DNA of 64,000 bases from Actinomycetes bacterium (GTDB taxonomy: Bacteria > Actinomycetota > Actinomycetes > Prado026). The notes beneath the pieces are model-generated. The model did no database searches. It saw only the letters and a program-made list of their open reading frames with translations, and had not been told where the DNA came from. Shown piece by piece: positions 6,971 to 15,018 of this stretch. The DNA is taken from the NCBI GenBank assembly GCA_038210415.1, contig JBBQWS010000009.1, positions 14,267 to 78,266 on the forward strand, given 5' to 3'. The stretch's first letter is position 1. Each line of letters starts with the position of its first letter. Both the position numbers and the translations under genes were made by a program.

Positions 6971-9970
6971 TCAGCCCGAGCTGACCGTGATGACGCCGAC
7001 GTAGAATGTCTCGTTGGTGCTGCGCGCGGTGAGCACGGGGACCGCCTCGGCCGGGAACGTCACCTGGTAGGTGTCGACGTTCGTGCCGAAGGTGAGCGGC
7101 GGCCCGATAGCGCCGTCGGACGACGAGTCGGCGACGTTGTTCGGGTCCTGCGACCCGCCGACCGGCGTGAGCGGGGCGCCGTTGAGATCCATGGAGTCGC
7201 CGACAAGGCTCGCGTCGCTCTCCCAGAGCACCGCACCGATCGTTGTCGCGGCTCCGGGGACGCCGGTGATCGTGGTCGCCTGGTCCCGGCCCGGTTGTAC
7301 GCTGGCGATCCCGTCGAACACGGTCACCTGCGCTCCCGGGTGCGTCGGGTCGTCGAAGACGACGACCAGCGACCAACCGGCGTAGCGGTTGCTGCCGAGG
7401 GTCGCCGTCGGGTCGGCGGCCGACCAGGTGCCGCCACCACCGGCCCGGACCGACGAGGTGACGTCCGCGAAGGCCTGGTAGACCTTCGGGTTGGCTTTCG
7501 CGTCGACCAGGTGGGCGGCAGTGACGTCGGTGTAGTCCGAGTCCGCGGGACCACGGAGCTTGATGTGGGTCGGGTCGGTGGTGCCGTCCCAGCTGCCGGA
7601 CCAGTACAGCCCGGCCCAGCGCACCGTGGCGCCGCTCGGCATGGCGAGGTTGACCGCGGACGACGCGTAGGTCGAGGGGTCGCCGTCGGCGTCGTACCAG
7701 GTCATGTTCCAGTCGTTGTTGTCGAGCTTGGTGCCGATCCGGTTCTGGGCGTCGGTGCAGCCCTTGAGCACGATCGGGCAGGTCATCAACGTGTTGCCGA
7801 CCTGGGTGATCGATAGGGCGCCCTGGCCGGAGAACCGAGCGGTGAGGCCCTCCTTCTGGATGCCGCGCTCACCCGTGAGCGTGATCGGGGCAAGACCGGC
7901 CGCGCTGACGGTGACGGTCACCGGGGTGTCGCCGAGCGAGCGTTCGGCGACGTCGACCCGGAGGTACGCGGTCGTGGACTCACCCGGTGCCAAGGCGGGG
8001 TGCATGCAGGTGGCCCCATCGGTGGCTGCCGAGCACGACCAGCCGGTGACCGGCGCTCCGGTGGCGTACGTACGCGGGTGCAGGGCCGGGAGCCCGTCGG
8101 GCAGCCCGACCGCCGAGCCCTGGACGCCGACGAACGTGACGCCCTTGGGCAGCGCGACCGTGGCAGCCAGGGCGGTGGAGGTAGCGGTCCCGGTGTTGGT
8201 CACGGTGAAGCCGATCAGGCCGCTGCGGCCCTGCACCAGGTCGCCGAGCCGAGCCATCGAACCCGACAGGAGCGCGGCGCCCGGGTCAGTGGGACTGGGG
8301 GAGGGCGACGGGGACGGTGTCCCAGTGTCGGTCGGGCTCGGCGACGGCGAGGGCGACGGGGATCCGGTGTCGGTCGGGCTGGGGCTCGCGCTCGGGCTGG
8401 GGCTGGTCGACGTCGGCGTGGGGCTGGGGCTGGTCGAGGTCGGGCTGGGGCTCGGGCTGGTCGACGTCGGGGTCGGCCCGGCCGGGCTCGAGCTGGTCAC
8501 GGGTACCGGGATGGTCGCCAGCGAGGTCGGACCGCTCCCGGGTGTCGACGGGTCGCTTGGCCCGGGCGTCGACGGCCCGCTCGGACCGCCGGGTCCCCCG
8601 GTGCCGGCAGAGTCGCTCGGGCCCGGGACGACGGGTGCCGTCGCCGCCGGCGGGTCGCCGTTGATGTCCGGCTGTCCTGAGCTCTGGGTGAGTGCGACGA
8701 CGACACCGGCCCCGGCCAGCCCGATGACCGCTGCAGCGACGCCGGCGATCCAGGTCGTGGTGAGCGCGCCCCCGGTCGCCGTTGCCGTGATCGTCAGCGT
8801 CGGGATCGCGCTCGCCGCCGCGGTTCCGGTGCTGCTGCTGCTCGCTGCTGCGGCTGCCGGTGTGCTGGCTGCTGCGGCACTGGCGGCTGATCCCACGGCT
8901 GCGAGTCCGGCGGCTCCTGCGGCAGCCGCGGCGGCCACCGCTACCGCCCCCGACGACGCTGCTGCTCCGCCGCCTGCTGCTCCGGCGCCTGCTGCGCCGG
9001 CCCCCGCACCAGCACCGCTCGCCGCACCAGCGCCACCCGCGCCAGGGATCGAGCTGATGGCTGCGCCCGCGCCGAGCAGCGCGCCCGCTTTGAGGTAGCC
9101 TGCGACGAAGAGCCCCAGGACCAGCGGCGCAACGACGGCGCGCATGCCGTGATTGACGTCGACGAGCTCGCCGACGAGGGCCCGGCACCTCTCGCAGGTG
9201 TCGAGGTGGCCTTCGACCTGGGCGGTCTCACGCTTGGACAGGCCTCCGCGGGCGTACGAGCCGAGCCGGTCGGAGTACGGCTGGCAGCCCTGGTCGAGCG
9301 GCCCCATGAGGTGCTGCTGGAGGTAGGCCTGGCGCAGTCCCTCGCGGGCGCGGTACGCGAGCGCGGCGACGCCGTTGGCGGTGAGCCCGAGGATCGGGGC
9401 TACCTGAGCCGGGTTCAGTCCCTCGACCTCGGTGTGCCACAGCACCGTCTGCCAGCGCTCGGGAAGCGACGAGTACGCCCGGGCGACGAGCGACTTCTCC
9501 AGGCCCTCGACGGCGGGGTCGACGAACGGGACGCCCGGGTCGTACGGCTCGAGGTCGTCGGTGACCTGGACCTTGCTGCTCGCCCGGGTGCGGTCGTACG
9601 CGCCTCGCCGGAGGGCGGTCAGCAGGTACGCGCGGAACGCGACGTCGGGCCCGCCGCCGGCCTGGAGCACGACCAGCACCTTCGCGAAGGCGTCCGACAC
9701 GAAGTCTTCGGCCTCGCCGGGGTCGCGGGTCAGCTGCCGGGCTAGCGAGCGCGCGGCGCCGATGTGCCGCGAGAAGAGCGGCCCGAACGCCTCGGTGTTG
9801 CCGGCCCGGACCGCGGTGATCAGCTCAGCGTCGCTCGGCTCGACTGCGCCTTCGGGGGCGGCGTCGAGCGGGACGGGGGGCTGTTCGGACACGGGTCGGG
9901 CTTCTCCATTCGAGGTCGGCGAGCTCGTGCGTGGGGCAGTTTGTCCGGTCTGCGGCCTATCAGTGTCCAT
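6971..9970 (-). CDS. ECF sigma factor fused to a zinc anti-sigma motif, membrane segments, an Ala/Gly-rich tract, a Pro/Ser/Thr linker and a ~435-aa C-terminal domain
   Basis: - One uninterrupted frame.
- Sigma-70 region 2 (FVSDAFAKVLV) and region 4 HTH (NPAQVAPILGLTANGVAALAYRAREGL).
- HLDTCERC (HxxxCxxC) motif.
- Hydrophobic segments VVAPLVLGLFVAGYL and WIAGVAAAVIGLAGAGVVVAL.
- SPSPSPSPTDTG repeats, then a Trp/Asp-rich domain.
- Start taken at ATG 9970. The farther TTG at 9991 would make codon 2 a rare TTA. Confidence 0.75.
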   Translation of the reverse strand: MDTDRPQTGQTAPRTSSPTSNGEARPVSEQPPVPLDAAPEGAVEPSDAELITAVRAGNTEAFGPLFSRHIGAARSLARQLTRDPGEAEDFVSDAFAKVLVVLQAGGGPDVAFRAYLLTALRRGAYDRTRASSKVQVTDDLEPYDPGVPFVDPAVEGLEKSLVARAYSSLPERWQTVLWHTEVEGLNPAQVAPILGLTANGVAALAYRAREGLRQAYLQQHLMGPLDQGCQPYSDRLGSYARGGLSKRETAQVEGHLDTCERCRALVGELVDVNHGMRAVVAPLVLGLFVAGYLKAGALLGAGAAISSIPGAGGAGAASGAGAGAGAAGAGAAGGGAAASSGAVAVAAAAAAGAAGLAAVGSAASAAAASTPAAAAASSSSTGTAAASAIPTLTITATATGGALTTTWIAGVAAAVIGLAGAGVVVALTQSSGQPDINGDPPAATAPVVPGPSDSAGTGGPGGPSGPSTPGPSDPSTPGSGPTSLATIPVPVTSSSPAGPTPTSTSPSPSPTSTSPSPTPTSTSPSPSASPSPTDTGSPSPSPSPSPTDTGTPSPSPSPSPTDPGAALLSGSMARLGDLVQGRSGLIGFTVTNTGTATSTALAATVALPKGVTFVGVQGSAVGLPDGLPALHPRTYATGAPVTGWSCSAATDGATCMHPALAPGESTTAYLRVDVAERSLGDTPVTVTVSAAGLAPITLTGERGIQKEGLTARFSGQGALSITQVGNTLMTCPIVLKGCTDAQNRIGTKLDNNDWNMTWYDADGDPSTYASSAVNLAMPSGATVRWAGLYWSGSWDGTTDPTHIKLRGPADSDYTDVTAAHLVDAKANPKVYQAFADVTSSVRAGGGGTWSAADPTATLGSNRYAGWSLVVVFDDPTHPGAQVTVFDGIASVQPGRDQATTITGVPGAATTIGAVLWESDASLVGDSMDLNGAPLTPVGGSQDPNNVADSSSDGAIGPPLTFGTNVDTYQVTFPAEAVPVLTARSTNETFYVGVITVSSG
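8282..8674 (-). repeat. coding low-complexity Pro/Ser/Thr linker with tandem ~45-nt units (inside the ECF fusion gene)
   Basis: Residues ~440-570 of the ECF fusion. The sequence SPSPTDTGSPSPSPSPSPTDTGTPSPSPSPSPTDPG is visible as repeated GGCGACGGGGA..GTGTCGGTCGGGCT units on the + strand at about 8285-8400. Confidence 0.7.
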
Positions 9971-10152
9971 GATCGCGCGTGCGTATAACAACGCTTACAA
10001 GACAGAGACGTCGCCGCCACCGGATCGTGACGGAGAAACGGCCCTGGAAGCCGTACGGAAAAAACATCGACCAAACCCGCGTCACGGTTGAGCCCTGGGG
10101 ACGTCTCATCGGTGTTCGGGAAGTTTCCAGCCGGAGAGAGAGGAGGACGCAG

Positions 10153-10935
10153 ATGTCCGACGATGTGCTCGAGGCCCTGTTCCCCCTCGGCGGCCCTGCC
10201 TCCGCCCTCCGCGCCCGTTGGCAGCGGCGCAGCGCCGCTGCCACCTGGTCACACCCCACCGACTGGTGGGACCCGGCCGTCGACGCCCTCGCCGAGGCAC
10301 TCACCGATGGGCGTGACGCGTCCGTCCCCGCCGAGCTGCTGGGCCGGGTCCGTGCCGAGGCGTGCGTAGGGCTGAACGAGTGCCTCGACGACCTGTCCGC
10401 CCTGTTCCGTGAGCTAGGTATCGACGAACCGCCGTTCGAGGTCACCCGCTCCTTCATGGCCGGCTGGGCCGACGTCGGCGTCGTGCCGCTGCGCACCGCC
10501 GGCTGCGAGGACGCGATGACCGGCCTGGCGACCCCGTCGTACCTGCGTACCCGGCTCGGCGAGCTCTACCGCACCGCCGTCCTCGACAACCGGCTGGTCA
10601 CCGACATCGCCGGCCTGGTCATCCTCGACGCATCGGTCGAGACGGCCGACCCGTGGGAGCGGCTCGGTCGGGTCTCGATCCTGGCGGACTGCCTGCGCGA
10701 GCACTTCGTCGGTGGCGAGACGCTGGTCGTCCTCGGCTCCGGTCGGGTGGCTGCCCTCGTCGACCGCACGGCCGACCTCGGCCCGATCCTTGCCGAGCTG
10801 CGCGACCTCGTCGACGTGCGACTGATCATGGGCGGGCTCTCGCAGGCCTCCCGGCGACCTCCGCGGGTGTGGCTCGAGCCGCTCCCGGCGGACTACGACC
10901 AGGCGATGGCGCTCCTGCGGGAGCTCGATCGCTGA
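10153..10935 (+). CDS. hypothetical protein with a degenerate GGDEF-like C-terminal half
   Basis: ATG at 10153 preceded by GAGAGAGGAGGA. The segment EDAMTGLATPSYLRTRLGEL..GLVILDAS..ILADCLREHFVGGETLVVLGSGRVAALV lines up by eye with DxLTGL..llDiD..RyGGDEF, but the GGDEF signature reads GSGRV. Confidence 0.6.
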   Translation: MSDDVLEALFPLGGPASALRARWQRRSAAATWSHPTDWWDPAVDALAEALTDGRDASVPAELLGRVRAEACVGLNECLDDLSALFRELGIDEPPFEVTRSFMAGWADVGVVPLRTAGCEDAMTGLATPSYLRTRLGELYRTAVLDNRLVTDIAGLVILDASVETADPWERLGRVSILADCLREHFVGGETLVVLGSGRVAALVDRTADLGPILAELRDLVDVRLIMGGLSQASRRPPRVWLEPLPADYDQAMALLRELDR

Positions 10936-13505: not shown

Positions 13506-14297
13506 TCAGACCGCGAGTCGCCAGGCGGTGAAGCTGTGCAGCTCCCAGCCGGAGTGGTGGTGGAACGCCGCGGTGGTGTGGTCGGGGTCCCAGAACACGA
13601 AGCCCTGCACGTCGATGAGCCGGCCGCCGGGCGGGATAGCCGGCGCCCAGCCCTTGGCGCGGAAGTTGCCGTCGATCTCGATATGGATGGCCCGGAAGTC
13701 GGCGGTCACCGAGGCCGGCAGCGCTGGATCGGTCAGCTCACAGGTCCAGTCGCCGTCGGCGTTGATCTTCGCGCACGAACCGACGGTCACCCGGTGCAGC
13801 TCGACCAGAGTCGGGACGCCGGACACGGAGCAGGGCGGGTTGGTCGACCGTCGGTCGGGTATGCCGGGCTTGAAGCCGCCGCCCGCGAGGGTGGCCCCGC
13901 CGAGAGCCGAGCGCTGGGTCCCGAGGACCTTCGCGAGCGTGGTGAGCACGGGCTTGCAGGACACGTGGGTGTTCCACGAGACCCCGGTGACGGCCCGAGC
14001 GGCCGCGCTGCTCGGGGCGACGGTCGTCGCCCGGGGCGCGGTCGACGGGCGGCTCGACGGGCGGCTGGGCGTCGCCTTGGCTGCCGGCGTGGCAGACCGG
14101 GAGGCGGAAGCGGAAGCCGACGCCGTCCCGGTCAGCGACTGGGACGGCCCGGAGCTTTGGTCCGGCACGGCGGCCTGGGCGGTCGTGGCGCCCGGCGGCG
14201 TCGTAGCGTTGGCAGCCGAGCACGCGGCCAGGGTGATGAAGGCGGCCGAGGCGGCGAGCCAGCGCCCGGCGGAACGACGGCCTGTGCGGTAGGTCAT
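13506..14297 (-). CDS. putative lipoprotein, unknown function
   Basis: 263 aa. Signal peptide with lipobox ITLAAC|S, then an Ala/Ser/Pro-rich linker and a Cys-containing C-terminal domain ending WDPDHTTAAFHHHSGWELH. Confidence 0.65.
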   Translation of the reverse strand: MTYRTGRRSAGRWLAASAAFITLAACSAANATTPPGATTAQAAVPDQSSGPSQSLTGTASASASASRSATPAAKATPSRPSSRPSTAPRATTVAPSSAAARAVTGVSWNTHVSCKPVLTTLAKVLGTQRSALGGATLAGGGFKPGIPDRRSTNPPCSVSGVPTLVELHRVTVGSCAKINADGDWTCELTDPALPASVTADFRAIHIEIDGNFRAKGWAPAIPPGGRLIDVQGFVFWDPDHTTAAFHHHSGWELHSFTAWRLAV

Positions 14298-14307
14298 GGC
14301 CTGCAGG

Positions 14308-15018
14308 CTACAGCCGGTCGACGAGGTCCACGAGCGCCGCCGCCGTTCCGGCCGGGTCGCGCAGGGCAGCGAAGTGGCCGGCCGGGTGCTGCGCCGTCGG
14401 CCACCCGCGGCCCCGGGCCAGCCGCATCGGGAGGTCGTAGGCGCTCGAGGTCTGCAGGTAGCCGCAGGGGGCGTCCGGCCAGTCGACGGCAGCCGGCAGC
14501 GGCTCGACGAAGAAGTCGAGGTCGTGCGGGCGCAGCGAAGCCAGCAGCAAGGCCCGGTCGACCGGGTCGGGAACGTCGTCAGCGAGGTCGGCCCCCGACC
14601 AGTCCGGGAAGCGTCCGCCAGAGGTCAGGTCGCTGCGCAGTCCCTCGGCGAACGACGAGTCCTCGACGTCGAGCAGGTCGAGCCTGGACGCCGGTGAGCC
14701 CGGGCGGGGCAGGCCGGCATCGAGGAACACGTAGCCGCGGACCGGCTGGTGGGCGCTGCGCCGGGCGAACCCGACCTGCGGCAGCAACGGGCCGGCGCCG
14801 CTGTGCCCCACCACCACCGTCGCAGCGGCGACCCCGGCAGCGGCGATCTGGAGCGCCGCGAGCGCGACGTACCGGCTGGCGTACGGCGGCTGGTCGTCAC
14901 CTGTGACCTCGGGGACGACCACGTGCAACCCAGCGGCCCGCAGGATCTCCGGCAGCCGTCCCCAGGCGGCCGCACCGGTCAGCGGGGAGTGGAGTAGGAC
15001 GATCGACGACGGCTGCAC
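14308..15018 (-). CDS. alpha/beta hydrolase
   Basis: 236 aa. Nucleophile elbow VVGHSGAG (GxSxG), a short N-terminal beta strand, and LLHSPL. Confidence 0.7.
   Translation of the reverse strand: MQPSSIVLLHSPLTGAAAWGRLPEILRAAGLHVVVPEVTGDDQPPYASRYVALAALQIAAAGVAAATVVVGHSGAGPLLPQVGFARRSAHQPVRGYVFLDAGLPRPGSPASRLDLLDVEDSSFAEGLRSDLTSGGRFPDWSGADLADDVPDPVDRALLLASLRPHDLDFFVEPLPAAVDWPDAPCGYLQTSSAYDLPMRLARGRGWPTAQHPAGHFAALRDPAGTAAALVDLVDRL

Follow-up and report, generated by a model that had tools for sequence, protein, structure and literature searches.

The question raised by this locus is how a sigma factor built into one polypeptide with its own anti-sigma domain, a membrane segment and a large C-terminal region is kept under control, and which genes it would serve. 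The locus lies in a stretch of 64,000 nucleotides from an Actinomycetes bacterium (positions 14,267 to 78,266 of contig JBBQWS010000009.1, assembly GCA_038210415.1), called the window hereafter. The host is known from a 3.3-Mb metagenome-assembled genome (MAG), 89% complete and in 95 contigs, whose closest named relative is a Sporichthyaceae MAG. The fusion gene probably codes for a one-polypeptide signalling device of the actinobacterial class that resembles group ECF52 (ECF, extracytoplasmic function), in which a membrane-tethered sigma factor would be linked to a sensor outside the cell, released by proteolysis and directed to a small regulon that includes its own gene. To what was known of this class the analysis adds a probable topology, an assignment of the sensor domains, a conserved partner gene, a candidate promoter and a predicted regulon.

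A sigma factor and its anti-sigma domain in one frame

The predicted modules of the fusion up to the anti-sigma domain are given below with their window positions. Residues are numbered throughout from TTG 9991.

6971..9991, minus strand: open reading frame (ORF) of the whole sigma/anti-sigma/transmembrane (TM)/sensor fusion, one uninterrupted frame of 1006 amino acids (aa) from TTG 9991
9839..9991, minus strand: N-terminal residues 1-51, low-complexity, variable and predicted disordered (predicted local distance difference test score, pLDDT, <50 at 1-47), part of which is probably upstream of the true start
9572..9838, minus strand: ECF sigma region 2 (residues ~52-140), from Sigma70_r2, TIGR02937 and PDB sequence matches and pLDDT >90
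9299..9508, minus strand: ECF sigma region 4 with its helix-turn-helix (HTH; residues ~162-231), from Sigma70_r4_2 and pLDDT ~90
9146..9298, minus strand: zinc-binding anti-sigma (ZAS) domain, a putative class I anti-sigma domain (ASD; residues ~232-282), from zf-HC2 and the ligand set

The Pfam model Sigma70_r2 scores 35.8 bits at residues 72-139 (cut-off 24) and the NCBIfam model TIGR02937 (sigma70-ECF) 51 bits (cut-off 42.9), and the best matches of the sigma part in a PDB sequence search are the ECF sigma factors CnrH (E 6e-6), SigL, AlgU, σE, SigH and SigW. Region 4 follows a disordered sigma2-sigma4 linker (residues 140-161). Its Sigma70_r4_2 match at residues 170-217 reaches 20.9 bits, under the cut-off of 25.7, and the same model is matched in 48/50 family members. 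The scoring of the N-terminus as sigma-70, on which a first-pass annotation of this DNA had made its reading depend, stands for region 2, while region 4 falls below its cut-off. No match to the sigma1 or sigma3 regions was found in the fusion protein. With only sigma2 and sigma4 and with matches to ECF models, the fusion is an ECF (group 4) member of the sigma70 family.

The adjoining zinc-finger part matches zf-HC2 at residues 236-270 with 37 bits (cut-off 22.2) and, in the PDB sequence search, the anti-sigma domain of ChrR (E 0.0097). It carries the sequence HLDTCERC (nt 9185-9208), and the predicted zinc ligands C236-x25-H262-x3-C266-x2-C269 are all four invariant in an alignment of 50 homologs. 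The domain conforms to the motif of the ZAS subfamily, and is predicted to bind zinc and to contact the sigma factor. An AlphaFold model built on the alignment has pLDDT >85 for residues ~50-140, most of 170-270 and 570-1006, with drops to ~60-77 over residues 220-229 and 270-289, and has helices at residues 237-298. Foldseek with the full-length model recovered the σE/RseA, AlgU/MucA and SigW/RsiW complexes for the N-terminal module.

The first-pass annotation had described a single polypeptide made of an ECF sigma factor, a ZAS anti-sigma domain, a membrane segment and a large C-terminal region. This is confirmed by the single frame, by the GC content at third codon positions (GC3) and by more than 1000 relatives, and the elements that it had listed (sigma regions 2 and 4, the HLDTCERC signature, hydrophobic segments, an Ala/Gly tract and a Pro/Ser/Thr linker) are all present. 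Its proviso that a frameshift might divide the frame into separate genes was not borne out, the frame being intact and the layout conserved. In-frame GC3 is 0.82-0.97 along the fusion gene and dips to 0.67 only within the Ala/Gly tract, because of a (GCA)n triplet repeat located there. No alternative frame at 6971-9991 gives a plausible product.

A word-indexed search counted 1080 related database proteins, and domain checks were made on the best 120 of these 1080. All 120 have Sigma70_r2, each within one polypeptide of 620-1550 aa, and a zf-HC2 match is on record for 118 of them. BLAST of the separate parts placed the C-terminal domain named D2 below (queried as residues 731-1006) at the extreme C-terminus in 111/120, and found the preceding domain D1 (queried as residues 591-730) in 94/120. 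At the corresponding locus, sister genomes of the host family carry uninterrupted frames of 1005-1098 aa, and all named relatives are Actinomycetota. In a sample of 301 genomes of the class, the sigma/ZAS module (counted at E <=1e-30) was matched in 89; these include 14/14 genomes of a Streptomyces-like family (f28; genomes of 7-10 Mb), with 46-48% identity.

Three in-frame codons are candidate starts: TTG 9991 (1006 aa), ATG 9970 (codon 8; 999 aa) and GTG 9892 (V34 of the long frame; ~973 aa). The conserved true start is probably GTG 9892, with a product of ~973 aa, because conservation among sister genomes begins only at a GTG aligned with V34, because the Shine-Dalgarno-like sequence GGAGAAG lies 11 nt upstream of GTG 9892 while TTG 9991 and ATG 9970 have none, and because TTG 9991 abuts the predicted transcription start. 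The predicted -10 element described below ends at 10005, so that TTG 9991 is only 13 nt past it and coincides with the expected transcription start or lies a few nt from it.

Membrane topology

The ZAS domain is followed by a succession of hydrophobic and low-complexity stretches.

9077..9145, minus strand: first, weaker hydrophobic segment (residues 283-305), from Kyte-Doolittle hydropathy (KD), continuing a helix (residues 267-298) with falling pLDDT
8759..9076, minus strand: charge-free Ala/Gly tract with a (GCA)n repeat (residues 306-411), from composition and tandem repeats, modelled as disordered
8684..8758, minus strand: single TM helix (residues 412-436), predicted to be N-in/C-out, the strongest hydrophobic segment (KD 2.36)
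8276..8683, minus strand: Pro/Ser/Thr linker (residues 437-572) with tandem coding repeats, presumably extracytoplasmic, from composition, modelled as disordered

Among 50 homologs one strongly hydrophobic segment is always present (median KD 2.26), together with a weaker one (median KD 1.63) that begins 14-17 residues past the CxxC motif. In homologs with a short loop between the two segments (20-27 aa), this loop averages 2.96 K/R against 0.14 D/E, with most of its basic charge within the last 15 residues ahead of the second segment; over the 25 positions that follow that segment acidic residues prevail (1.74 D/E vs 1.32 K/R). By the positive-inside rule such a basic loop is cytoplasmic, which argues for the second segment as the single N-in/C-out TM helix and for a first segment that does not span the membrane. 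The topology is therefore most likely that of one N-in/C-out helix with the large C-terminal region outside the cell. D1 and D2 are placed outside because relatives of D2 are exported, because both domains have conserved Cys pairs and because members of the clade carry surface-type ectodomains. For the first segment the likeliest reading is that it closes the anti-sigma domain as its final helix, or else that it is a helix associated with the membrane; judged by known ASD structures, it would sit where helix IV of a class I ASD is expected. The choice between two and three TM helices posed by the first-pass annotation gives way to a single helix, favoured by the basic loop in the homologs and by the weakness of the first segment.

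Residues 281-460 are 35% Ala and 18% Gly, with a weaker poly-Ala hydrophobic stretch at residues 345-370 and a (GCA)15 triplet run at 8830-8875. In residues 461-590, Ser and Pro each make up 26% and Thr 15%, and Tandem Repeats Finder detected repeats with periods of 27 nt and 24 nt at 8373-8588 in this linker. The Ala/Gly tract presumably forms a flexible cytoplasmic tether. Its expansion is confined to the closest relatives, and the loop measures 41-170 aa among close relatives; tract lengths that differ so widely suggest slippage-driven variation or assembly uncertainty.

The probable ectodomains D1 and D2

The first-pass annotation could not assign the ~435-aa C-terminal region to a family. 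By hidden Markov model (HMM) search and the comparisons below, the region resolves into two domains, an Ig-like D1 and a DUF3344-like D2.

7856..8275, minus strand: D1, Ig-like beta-sandwich (residues ~573-712), from a weak DUF11 match and pLDDT >90 except in loop 626-647
6974..7855, minus strand: D2, putative exported beta-sandwich head (residues 713-1006; 294 aa), from a marginal DUF3344 match and signal-peptide-led relatives

The DUF11 match of D1 at residues 596-697 is weak (E 0.13). Its Cys pair C653/C662 is nearly invariant in an alignment of 50 sequences, and the pair C738/C745 of D2 is invariant in the same alignment. DUF3344 (PF11824) matches D2 at residues 766-900 with 27.5 bits against a cut-off of 27.2, covering only positions 29-173 of the 275 of the model. 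Apart from the sigma/anti-sigma complexes named above, the full-length fold search returned only generic Ig-stalk matches (integrin legs, MSCRAMM adhesins; template modelling score, TM-score, ~0.1) and was discarded as a guide to the identity of D2. As it was uninformative, D2 was remodelled alone, with pLDDT 96.6 and pTM 0.94. The jelly-roll or beta-sandwich folds matched by this second model (PNGase F, C-terminal modules of GH86, CBM22, Cry toxins and viral capsids) were not used to assign a function, their TM-scores being <=0.27.

With D2 as query, an exhaustive phmmer search gave matches in 2421 representative clusters, of which 136 reached E <=1e-30, and in many large proteins (1000-3500 aa) the match begins at about residue 40. 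The two such relatives examined have typical signal peptides (…VAAQA/D and …SASA/A) with D2 directly after; behind it both have DUF11 repeats, and one of them has cell-wall-binding CWB2 repeats as well. D2 elsewhere thus appears to be the signal-peptide-led head of surface proteins with a DUF11 stalk, a layout of fibrillar adhesins. These non-sigma relatives of D2 resemble the DUF3344 adhesin heads of a published survey (Monzon et al. 2022, PMC9210967) in their signal peptide, head, DUF11 stalk and occasional CWB2 repeats. The window protein has the reverse orientation, its head being at the C-terminal tip and its anchor an N-proximal TM helix. D2 is single-copy in the host genome. It probably binds a ligand of the envelope or the environment, possibly a glycan.

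Relation to known ECF classes

Actinobacterial proteins that fuse a sigma factor, a zinc finger and TM helices form groups ECF48, ECF52 and ECF53, for which proteolytic activation was proposed (Marcos-Torres et al. 2022, PMC8999054). The first-pass annotation was right to place the window protein in this class, and its belief that no member had been characterised experimentally has to be corrected: a 2018 study of SCO4117, an ECF52 protein of Streptomyces coelicolor, made use of a knockout, truncation and RNA-seq profiling (Lopez-Garcia et al. 2018, PMC5826349). Knockout of SCO4117 delayed development and antibiotic production, while a soluble sigma-only truncation is active and turns on its own expression (PMC5826349).

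SCO4117 and the window protein share an ECF sigma factor, a zf-HC2/ZAS domain, an Ala/Gly hydrophobic region with a TM helix, a Pro-rich linker and an extracytoplasmic C-terminal binding domain, predicted for the latter; both are restricted to Actinobacteria and positive autoregulation is proposed for both. The ECF52 domain order (sigma, zinc finger, TM, Pro-rich extension and C-terminal domain, in Actinobacteria only) is thus found in the window protein. The two differ in their sensors, a carbohydrate-binding NPCBM module in SCO4117 and the Ig-like D1 with the DUF3344-like D2 in the window protein, at whose C-terminus Pfam gave no NPCBM match. They differ also in context: the SCO4117 gene follows the TetR regulator gene atrA, and there is no TetR gene beside the window fusion gene. 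The published layout of SCO4117 recurs at one of the loci compared (L091), where a 631-aa protein with Sigma70_r2 and NPCBM (95.6 bits) is encoded directly downstream of a TetR gene. This SCO4117-type protein is 43% identical to window residues 52-295 (E 5e-56). The window protein is a homolog of the ECF52 prototype over the sigma/ZAS module and carries another sensor, and "ECF52-like" denotes here this identity and the domain order, not a group assignment.

In ECF48 and ECF53 the sigma factor is fused at its C-terminus to an anti-sigma-like zinc-finger domain and has one or two TM helices; activation is predicted to be proteolytic, and extensions are described up to ~400 residues (PMC8999054), whereas the extension of the window protein measures ~775 residues and includes two folded ectodomains. 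A sigma factor blocked by a single-pass membrane anti-sigma factor is likewise found in the σE/RseA and σW/RsiW pairs and, as a fusion, in IutY (Pseudomonas putida, ECF243). These are activated by sequential cleavage at site 1 (Prc, DegS or PrsW) and site 2 (RseP/RasP, M50), followed by cytoplasmic degradation (PMC8999054). The N-terminal module of the window protein is linked to σE/RseA, SigW/RsiW and ChrR by the Foldseek and sequence matches. IutY differs in belonging to Gram-negative cell-surface signalling with a TonB-dependent transducer and in having neither a ZAS motif nor an adhesin-like ectodomain.

The architecture is already catalogued and its class has one genetically characterised member, so that the present finding refines a known class and opens no new one. 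The topology, sensor domains, partner, promoter and regulon were not found in the accessible literature, and may be catalogued in Huang 2015, the Casas-Pastor 2021 supplements or Pinto 2019.

A conserved partner gene

The gene divergent from the fusion is conserved beside it.

10153..10935, plus strand: divergent partner gene, whose 260-aa cytoplasmic product has a helical N-terminal region followed by a degenerate GGDEF-like domain, from adjacency and profile search

Among 80 related loci from named genomes the partner gene adjoins the sigma gene, immediately upstream, in 70, only 12 of which have D2. Its profile matched 48 of the 301 class genomes, two of these matches being ordinary GGDEF proteins; of the other 46 genomes, by comparison of coordinates, about 44 have the partner next to the fusion gene and two have it within 2.5 kb. 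Most families show the divergent arrangement; nine genomes of family f12 have the partner co-directional and immediately upstream. None of the 14 genomes of family f28, which has the fusion and the SCO4117-type locus, has the partner, and the SCO4117 gene itself is without a GGDEF-like neighbour. The partner is single-copy in the host genome. Genes for a short-chain dehydrogenase/reductase, an aminotransferase, an aldehyde dehydrogenase, ClpB, a cytochrome P450, a deacetylase and a sulfotransferase, also neighbours here, were rejected as operon partners, since each is next to orthologs in only 0-2 of the 80 loci.

Single-sequence searches with the partner found nothing in Pfam (E up to 10) or in PDB, all Pfam models staying below threshold. 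When 43 partner orthologs were combined into a profile and compared with PDB, the nine best matches were all GGDEF domains (E 1.5e-4 to 0.07), with an alignment from the DPLTGL (DxLTGL) start through the signature strand. The GG[DE]EF signature is replaced by GSGRV in the window partner and by LGPxx in the consensus. Weak GGDEF matches are seen in only 3/43 orthologs, and a few orthologs have weak GGDEF_2 and RsbRD_N matches. An RxxD I-site is missing from its usual place in the partner, which also lacks EAL, HTH and receiver domains. These comparisons support homology to GGDEF at the level of the fold, while the signature and the Pfam match that would mark a diguanylate cyclase are lacking; the partner is GGDEF-like but degenerate, and presumably non-catalytic. 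Degenerate GGDEF domains commonly serve as modules for binding nucleotides or proteins rather than as cyclases. The partner recalls the degenerate GGDEF or GGDEF_2 domains of FimX and of PucR/CdaR-type regulators through its profile alignment to GGDEF and its weak GGDEF_2 and RsbRD_N matches. None of the papers examined describes a role for a degenerate GGDEF protein alongside such a sigma fusion.

Partner matches fall into two adjacent pieces in different frames in two genomes (G184, C15:1674852-1675588; G045, C5:846454-847192); the split could be a frameshift, a pseudogene or an assembly error.

A 236-aa hypothetical ORF without Pfam match lies farther along the window (14308-15018, minus strand). 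It has homologs within the 4-kb flanks of 6/80 related loci, those of the closest relatives and of some Streptosporangiales, in loose synteny.

A predicted promoter motif shared by the partner and the fusion

Bipartite words were enumerated in 71 divergent intergenic regions. The pair CGTCA…CGTC is found on the partner-sense strand in 43/71 regions, against a maximum of 15 in shuffled sequences, and the spacer of CGTCA-N17-CGTC is exactly 17 nt in 42/43 instances. A Y and a G right after CGTCA, which were outside the search pattern, are invariant in 25/25 non-redundant instances and extend the motif to CGTCAYG-N15-CGTCYC. A position weight matrix (PWM) of this motif scores >=18.5 in 55/71 regions and in 0/1420 shuffles. 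A fixed spacer and a CGTC-type -10 element are what ECF promoters typically show. In the window, the 182-nt region between the two divergent genes has two copies back-to-back, one facing each gene.

10080..10107, plus strand: predicted partner promoter CGTCACG-N15-CGTCTC, ending 45 nt before ATG 10153
10005..10032, minus strand: predicted sigma-fusion promoter CGTCACG-N15-CGTCTC, PWM 26.3, outside the training set

Between the partner-facing copy (10080-10107) and ATG 10153 there is a strong ribosome binding site, GGAGAGAGAGGAGGA. The exact motif is back-to-back at the fusion locus in 7/12 genomes of the host family, and the exact pattern has 48 matches in host-family genomes against 8 for a reversed control. 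A relaxed form of the motif faces the sigma gene in 15/71 loci (shuffle mean 0.12). In family f12 a single motif copy is followed by the partner and then by the sigma gene, with 32 nt between the genes, which reads as an ordinary autoregulated ECF operon. ECF sigma factors are commonly autoregulated (PMC5826349). From its position and form, CGTCAYG-N15-CGTCYC is predicted to be read by the sigma factor of the window.

A PWM scan of the host genome found six sites above the maximum of the shuffled genome (18.4). One, outside the window, precedes a gene that is a candidate further target.

Host contig C41:20120-20147, plus strand, outside the window: same motif, 120 nt upstream of a 127-aa HATPase_c_2 gene

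The gene codes for a stand-alone HATPase_c_2 domain (PF13581, 46.8 bits) of the RsbW/SpoIIAB fold. The corresponding class of site recurs in 9/12 genomes of the family, and a HATPase_c_2 homolog (58-66% identity) lies 121 nt downstream of the motif in 5/5 sister loci checked. The three other sites outside the window have no such conserved gene behind them so far as followed in sister genomes or by neighbouring genes. One (C44:5505-5532, plus strand) lies after the end of an EAL-domain gene and before a 27-aa Cys-containing ORF; the class of sites like it, 'CGTCATGACC', was dropped from the regulon since it precedes unrelated sequence in sister genomes. Another (C25:7021-7064, minus strand) lies before a 69-aa ORF without family, and the last (C19:43974-44017, plus strand) runs into a convergent gene for a prepilin-peptidase-like protein; these two are candidate motif sites only and were kept out of the regulon. 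The search for a motif that would delineate a regulon, suggested in the first-pass annotation, thus yielded a bipartite element before the partner, sigma and HATPase_c_2 genes.

Partner-bearing fusions of other genera end in DUF11, CARDB, five Big_9/cadherin-like repeats or unassigned C-terminal regions. Across these genomes the sigma/ZAS/TM chassis, the partner and the putative promoter are conserved while the ectodomain is exchanged.

Proposed mechanism and its alternatives

Taken together, these features suggest the following course of events. The zinc anti-sigma domain would keep the N-terminal ECF sigma factor inactive in cis, as homology indicates. Both would lie in the cytoplasm, tied through the ~105-aa uncharged Ala/Gly tether to the single N-in/C-out TM helix. 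Outside, the Pro/Ser/Thr stalk and the Ig-like D1 would carry the beta-sandwich head D2, the putative ligand sensor. Binding of a ligand to D2, or its loss, would lead to a site-1 cut outside the membrane and then to a site-2 (M50) cut within it. The fragment with sigma factor and ASD would be released, and degradation of the ASD in the cytoplasm would free the sigma factor; this regulated proteolysis is proposed by analogy with RseA, RsiW and IutY. Once free, the sigma factor would read CGTCAYG-N15-CGTCYC and activate its own gene, the degenerate GGDEF-like gene and the gene for the stand-alone, RsbW-like HATPase_c_2 protein. More speculatively, the partner may feed back on the sigma/ASD module.

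Several observations weigh against this account. The 106-aa Ala/Gly loop of the window protein has no charged residue at all, so that the positive-inside rule does not apply directly to this protein and the argument is carried by its homologs, which is the main caveat. The first segment has a KD of 1.81 in the window protein and could span the membrane. AlphaFold, whose use the first-pass annotation had advised, is confident for sigma/ASD and for D1/D2 and did not model the TM region as a helix, residues 295-466 having pLDDT <50. In an 89%-complete MAG the repeat lengths of low-complexity tracts may be mis-assembled. The DUF3344 match is marginal and partial, and the model recognises 10/50 family members (E <=0.01), which makes D2 a distant branch of DUF3344; the search with D2 modelled alone found no informative structural neighbour (PDB TM-scores <=0.27), and the adhesin survey that flagged DUF3344 in fibrillar-adhesin-like proteins called its function ambiguous (PMC9210967). 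The host genome has two M50 loci, but M50 is found in all control genomes too, so that its presence says little. The high-scoring copy that faces the sigma gene is restricted to the closest relatives. CGTCAYG-N15-CGTCYC is absent at the SCO4117-type locus, where the best PWM score is 8.2, and differs from the candidate motif published for SCO4117, CSGYN-17-SRHA (PMC5826349). The link between promoter and sigma factor is circumstantial, drawn from their co-localisation and from the ECF-like form of the motif.

The main rival, an unlikely one, is that the sigma factor is never released: a ligand-driven conformational change would undock the ASD, and the tether would let the sigma factor reach RNA polymerase and DNA while still bound to the membrane, in the manner of ToxR or CadC. 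Cut-and-release has no need of the charge-free, disordered tether expanded in this sub-lineage (~105 aa, and up to 170 aa in close relatives), no ECF52-type protein is known to be processed, and the authors of the SCO4117 study gave conformational change as an alternative (PMC5826349). In most homologs, however, the loop between ASD and TM helix is only 20-27 aa long, too short for easy entry into a holoenzyme on the nucleoid. Proteolysis is used by all well-studied single-pass membrane anti-sigma factors and by the fused IutY (PMC8999054), and the soluble sigma-only form of SCO4117 is active (PMC5826349).

It seems distinctly unlikely that the motif serves another ECF sigma factor or a different regulator, with the partner as a co-regulated neighbour and not a target. 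The link to the window sigma factor is itself a prediction, and the discrepancy with SCO4117, in motif and in locus, would fit another reader. Other ECF sigma/anti-sigma pairs are probably encoded in the host genome, because of seven zf-HC2 matches one is the fusion gene itself and the other six are in open frames of 86-452 aa. The motif nevertheless accompanies the sigma gene over many families in two arrangements, divergent and as the f12 operon with the partner before the sigma gene, and it faces the sigma gene itself in 15/71 loci. Its strict spacing and CGTC-type -10 element are typical of ECF promoters, and autoregulation is common among ECF sigma factors.

A sensor outside the cell, the remaining element of the proposed device, would be lost if the two hydrophobic segments (residues 283-305 and 412-436) formed a hairpin that exposes the Ala/Gly tract and leaves the Pro/Ser/Thr linker, D1 and D2 in the cytoplasm for intracellular sensing. 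This is very improbable. The hydropathy of the first segment, taken over 19 residues, is above the usual threshold of 1.6 in the window protein, and published accounts allow "one to two" or "a variable number" of TM helices (PMC5826349, PMC8999054). Yet the inter-segment loop is strongly basic in the homologs, a cytoplasmic mark, and in 29/50 of them the first segment scores <=1.65. Paralogs of D2 with signal peptides belong to DUF11/CWB2 surface proteins, Cys pairs are conserved in D1 and D2, and the Pro/Thr/Ser linkers and the Big_9, cadherin and CARDB domains of clade members are typical of exported proteins.

That misassembly or a frameshift created the long frame by joining separate sigma, anti-sigma and surface-protein genes, as the fragmented MAG (95 contigs), the poorly assembling tandem repeats of the Ala/Gly and Pro/Ser/Thr tracts and an ortholog of Streptomyces clavuligerus annotated as split, perhaps by a sequencing error (PMC5826349), might suggest, is effectively refuted by the identical module order in one frame in over 100 independent clusters drawn from isolates as well as MAGs, by the same fused layout in complete genomes and in more than 1000 database proteins, by a high GC3 across all junctions and by alternative frames without a plausible product.

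Significance

Fused one-component sigma/anti-sigma ECF systems are common in Actinobacteria. The present locus offers a likely topology, a confidently folded ectodomain, two back-to-back candidate promoters with a sharply defined motif, a conserved GGDEF-like partner, and the conserved HATPase_c_2 gene as a predicted target.

A bolder and rather doubtful proposal is that the partner-bearing clade constitutes a distinct, undescribed module: a surface-sensing fusion whose regulon would consist of signalling proteins (the fusion itself, the GGDEF-like protein and the RsbW-like HATPase_c_2 protein). The partner would bind c-di-GMP/GTP or the sigma/ASD module and, with the HATPase_c_2 protein, form a layer of feedback or partner switching. 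If this were true, contact at the cell surface would be coupled to second-messenger-type control of an ECF sigma factor, a combination not reported for any ECF group.

The exchange of ectodomains on a constant chassis amounts to a natural set of sensor swaps and may provide parts for synthetic ECF switches. Such swaps would help to show how a single output can be driven by a variety of surface signals.

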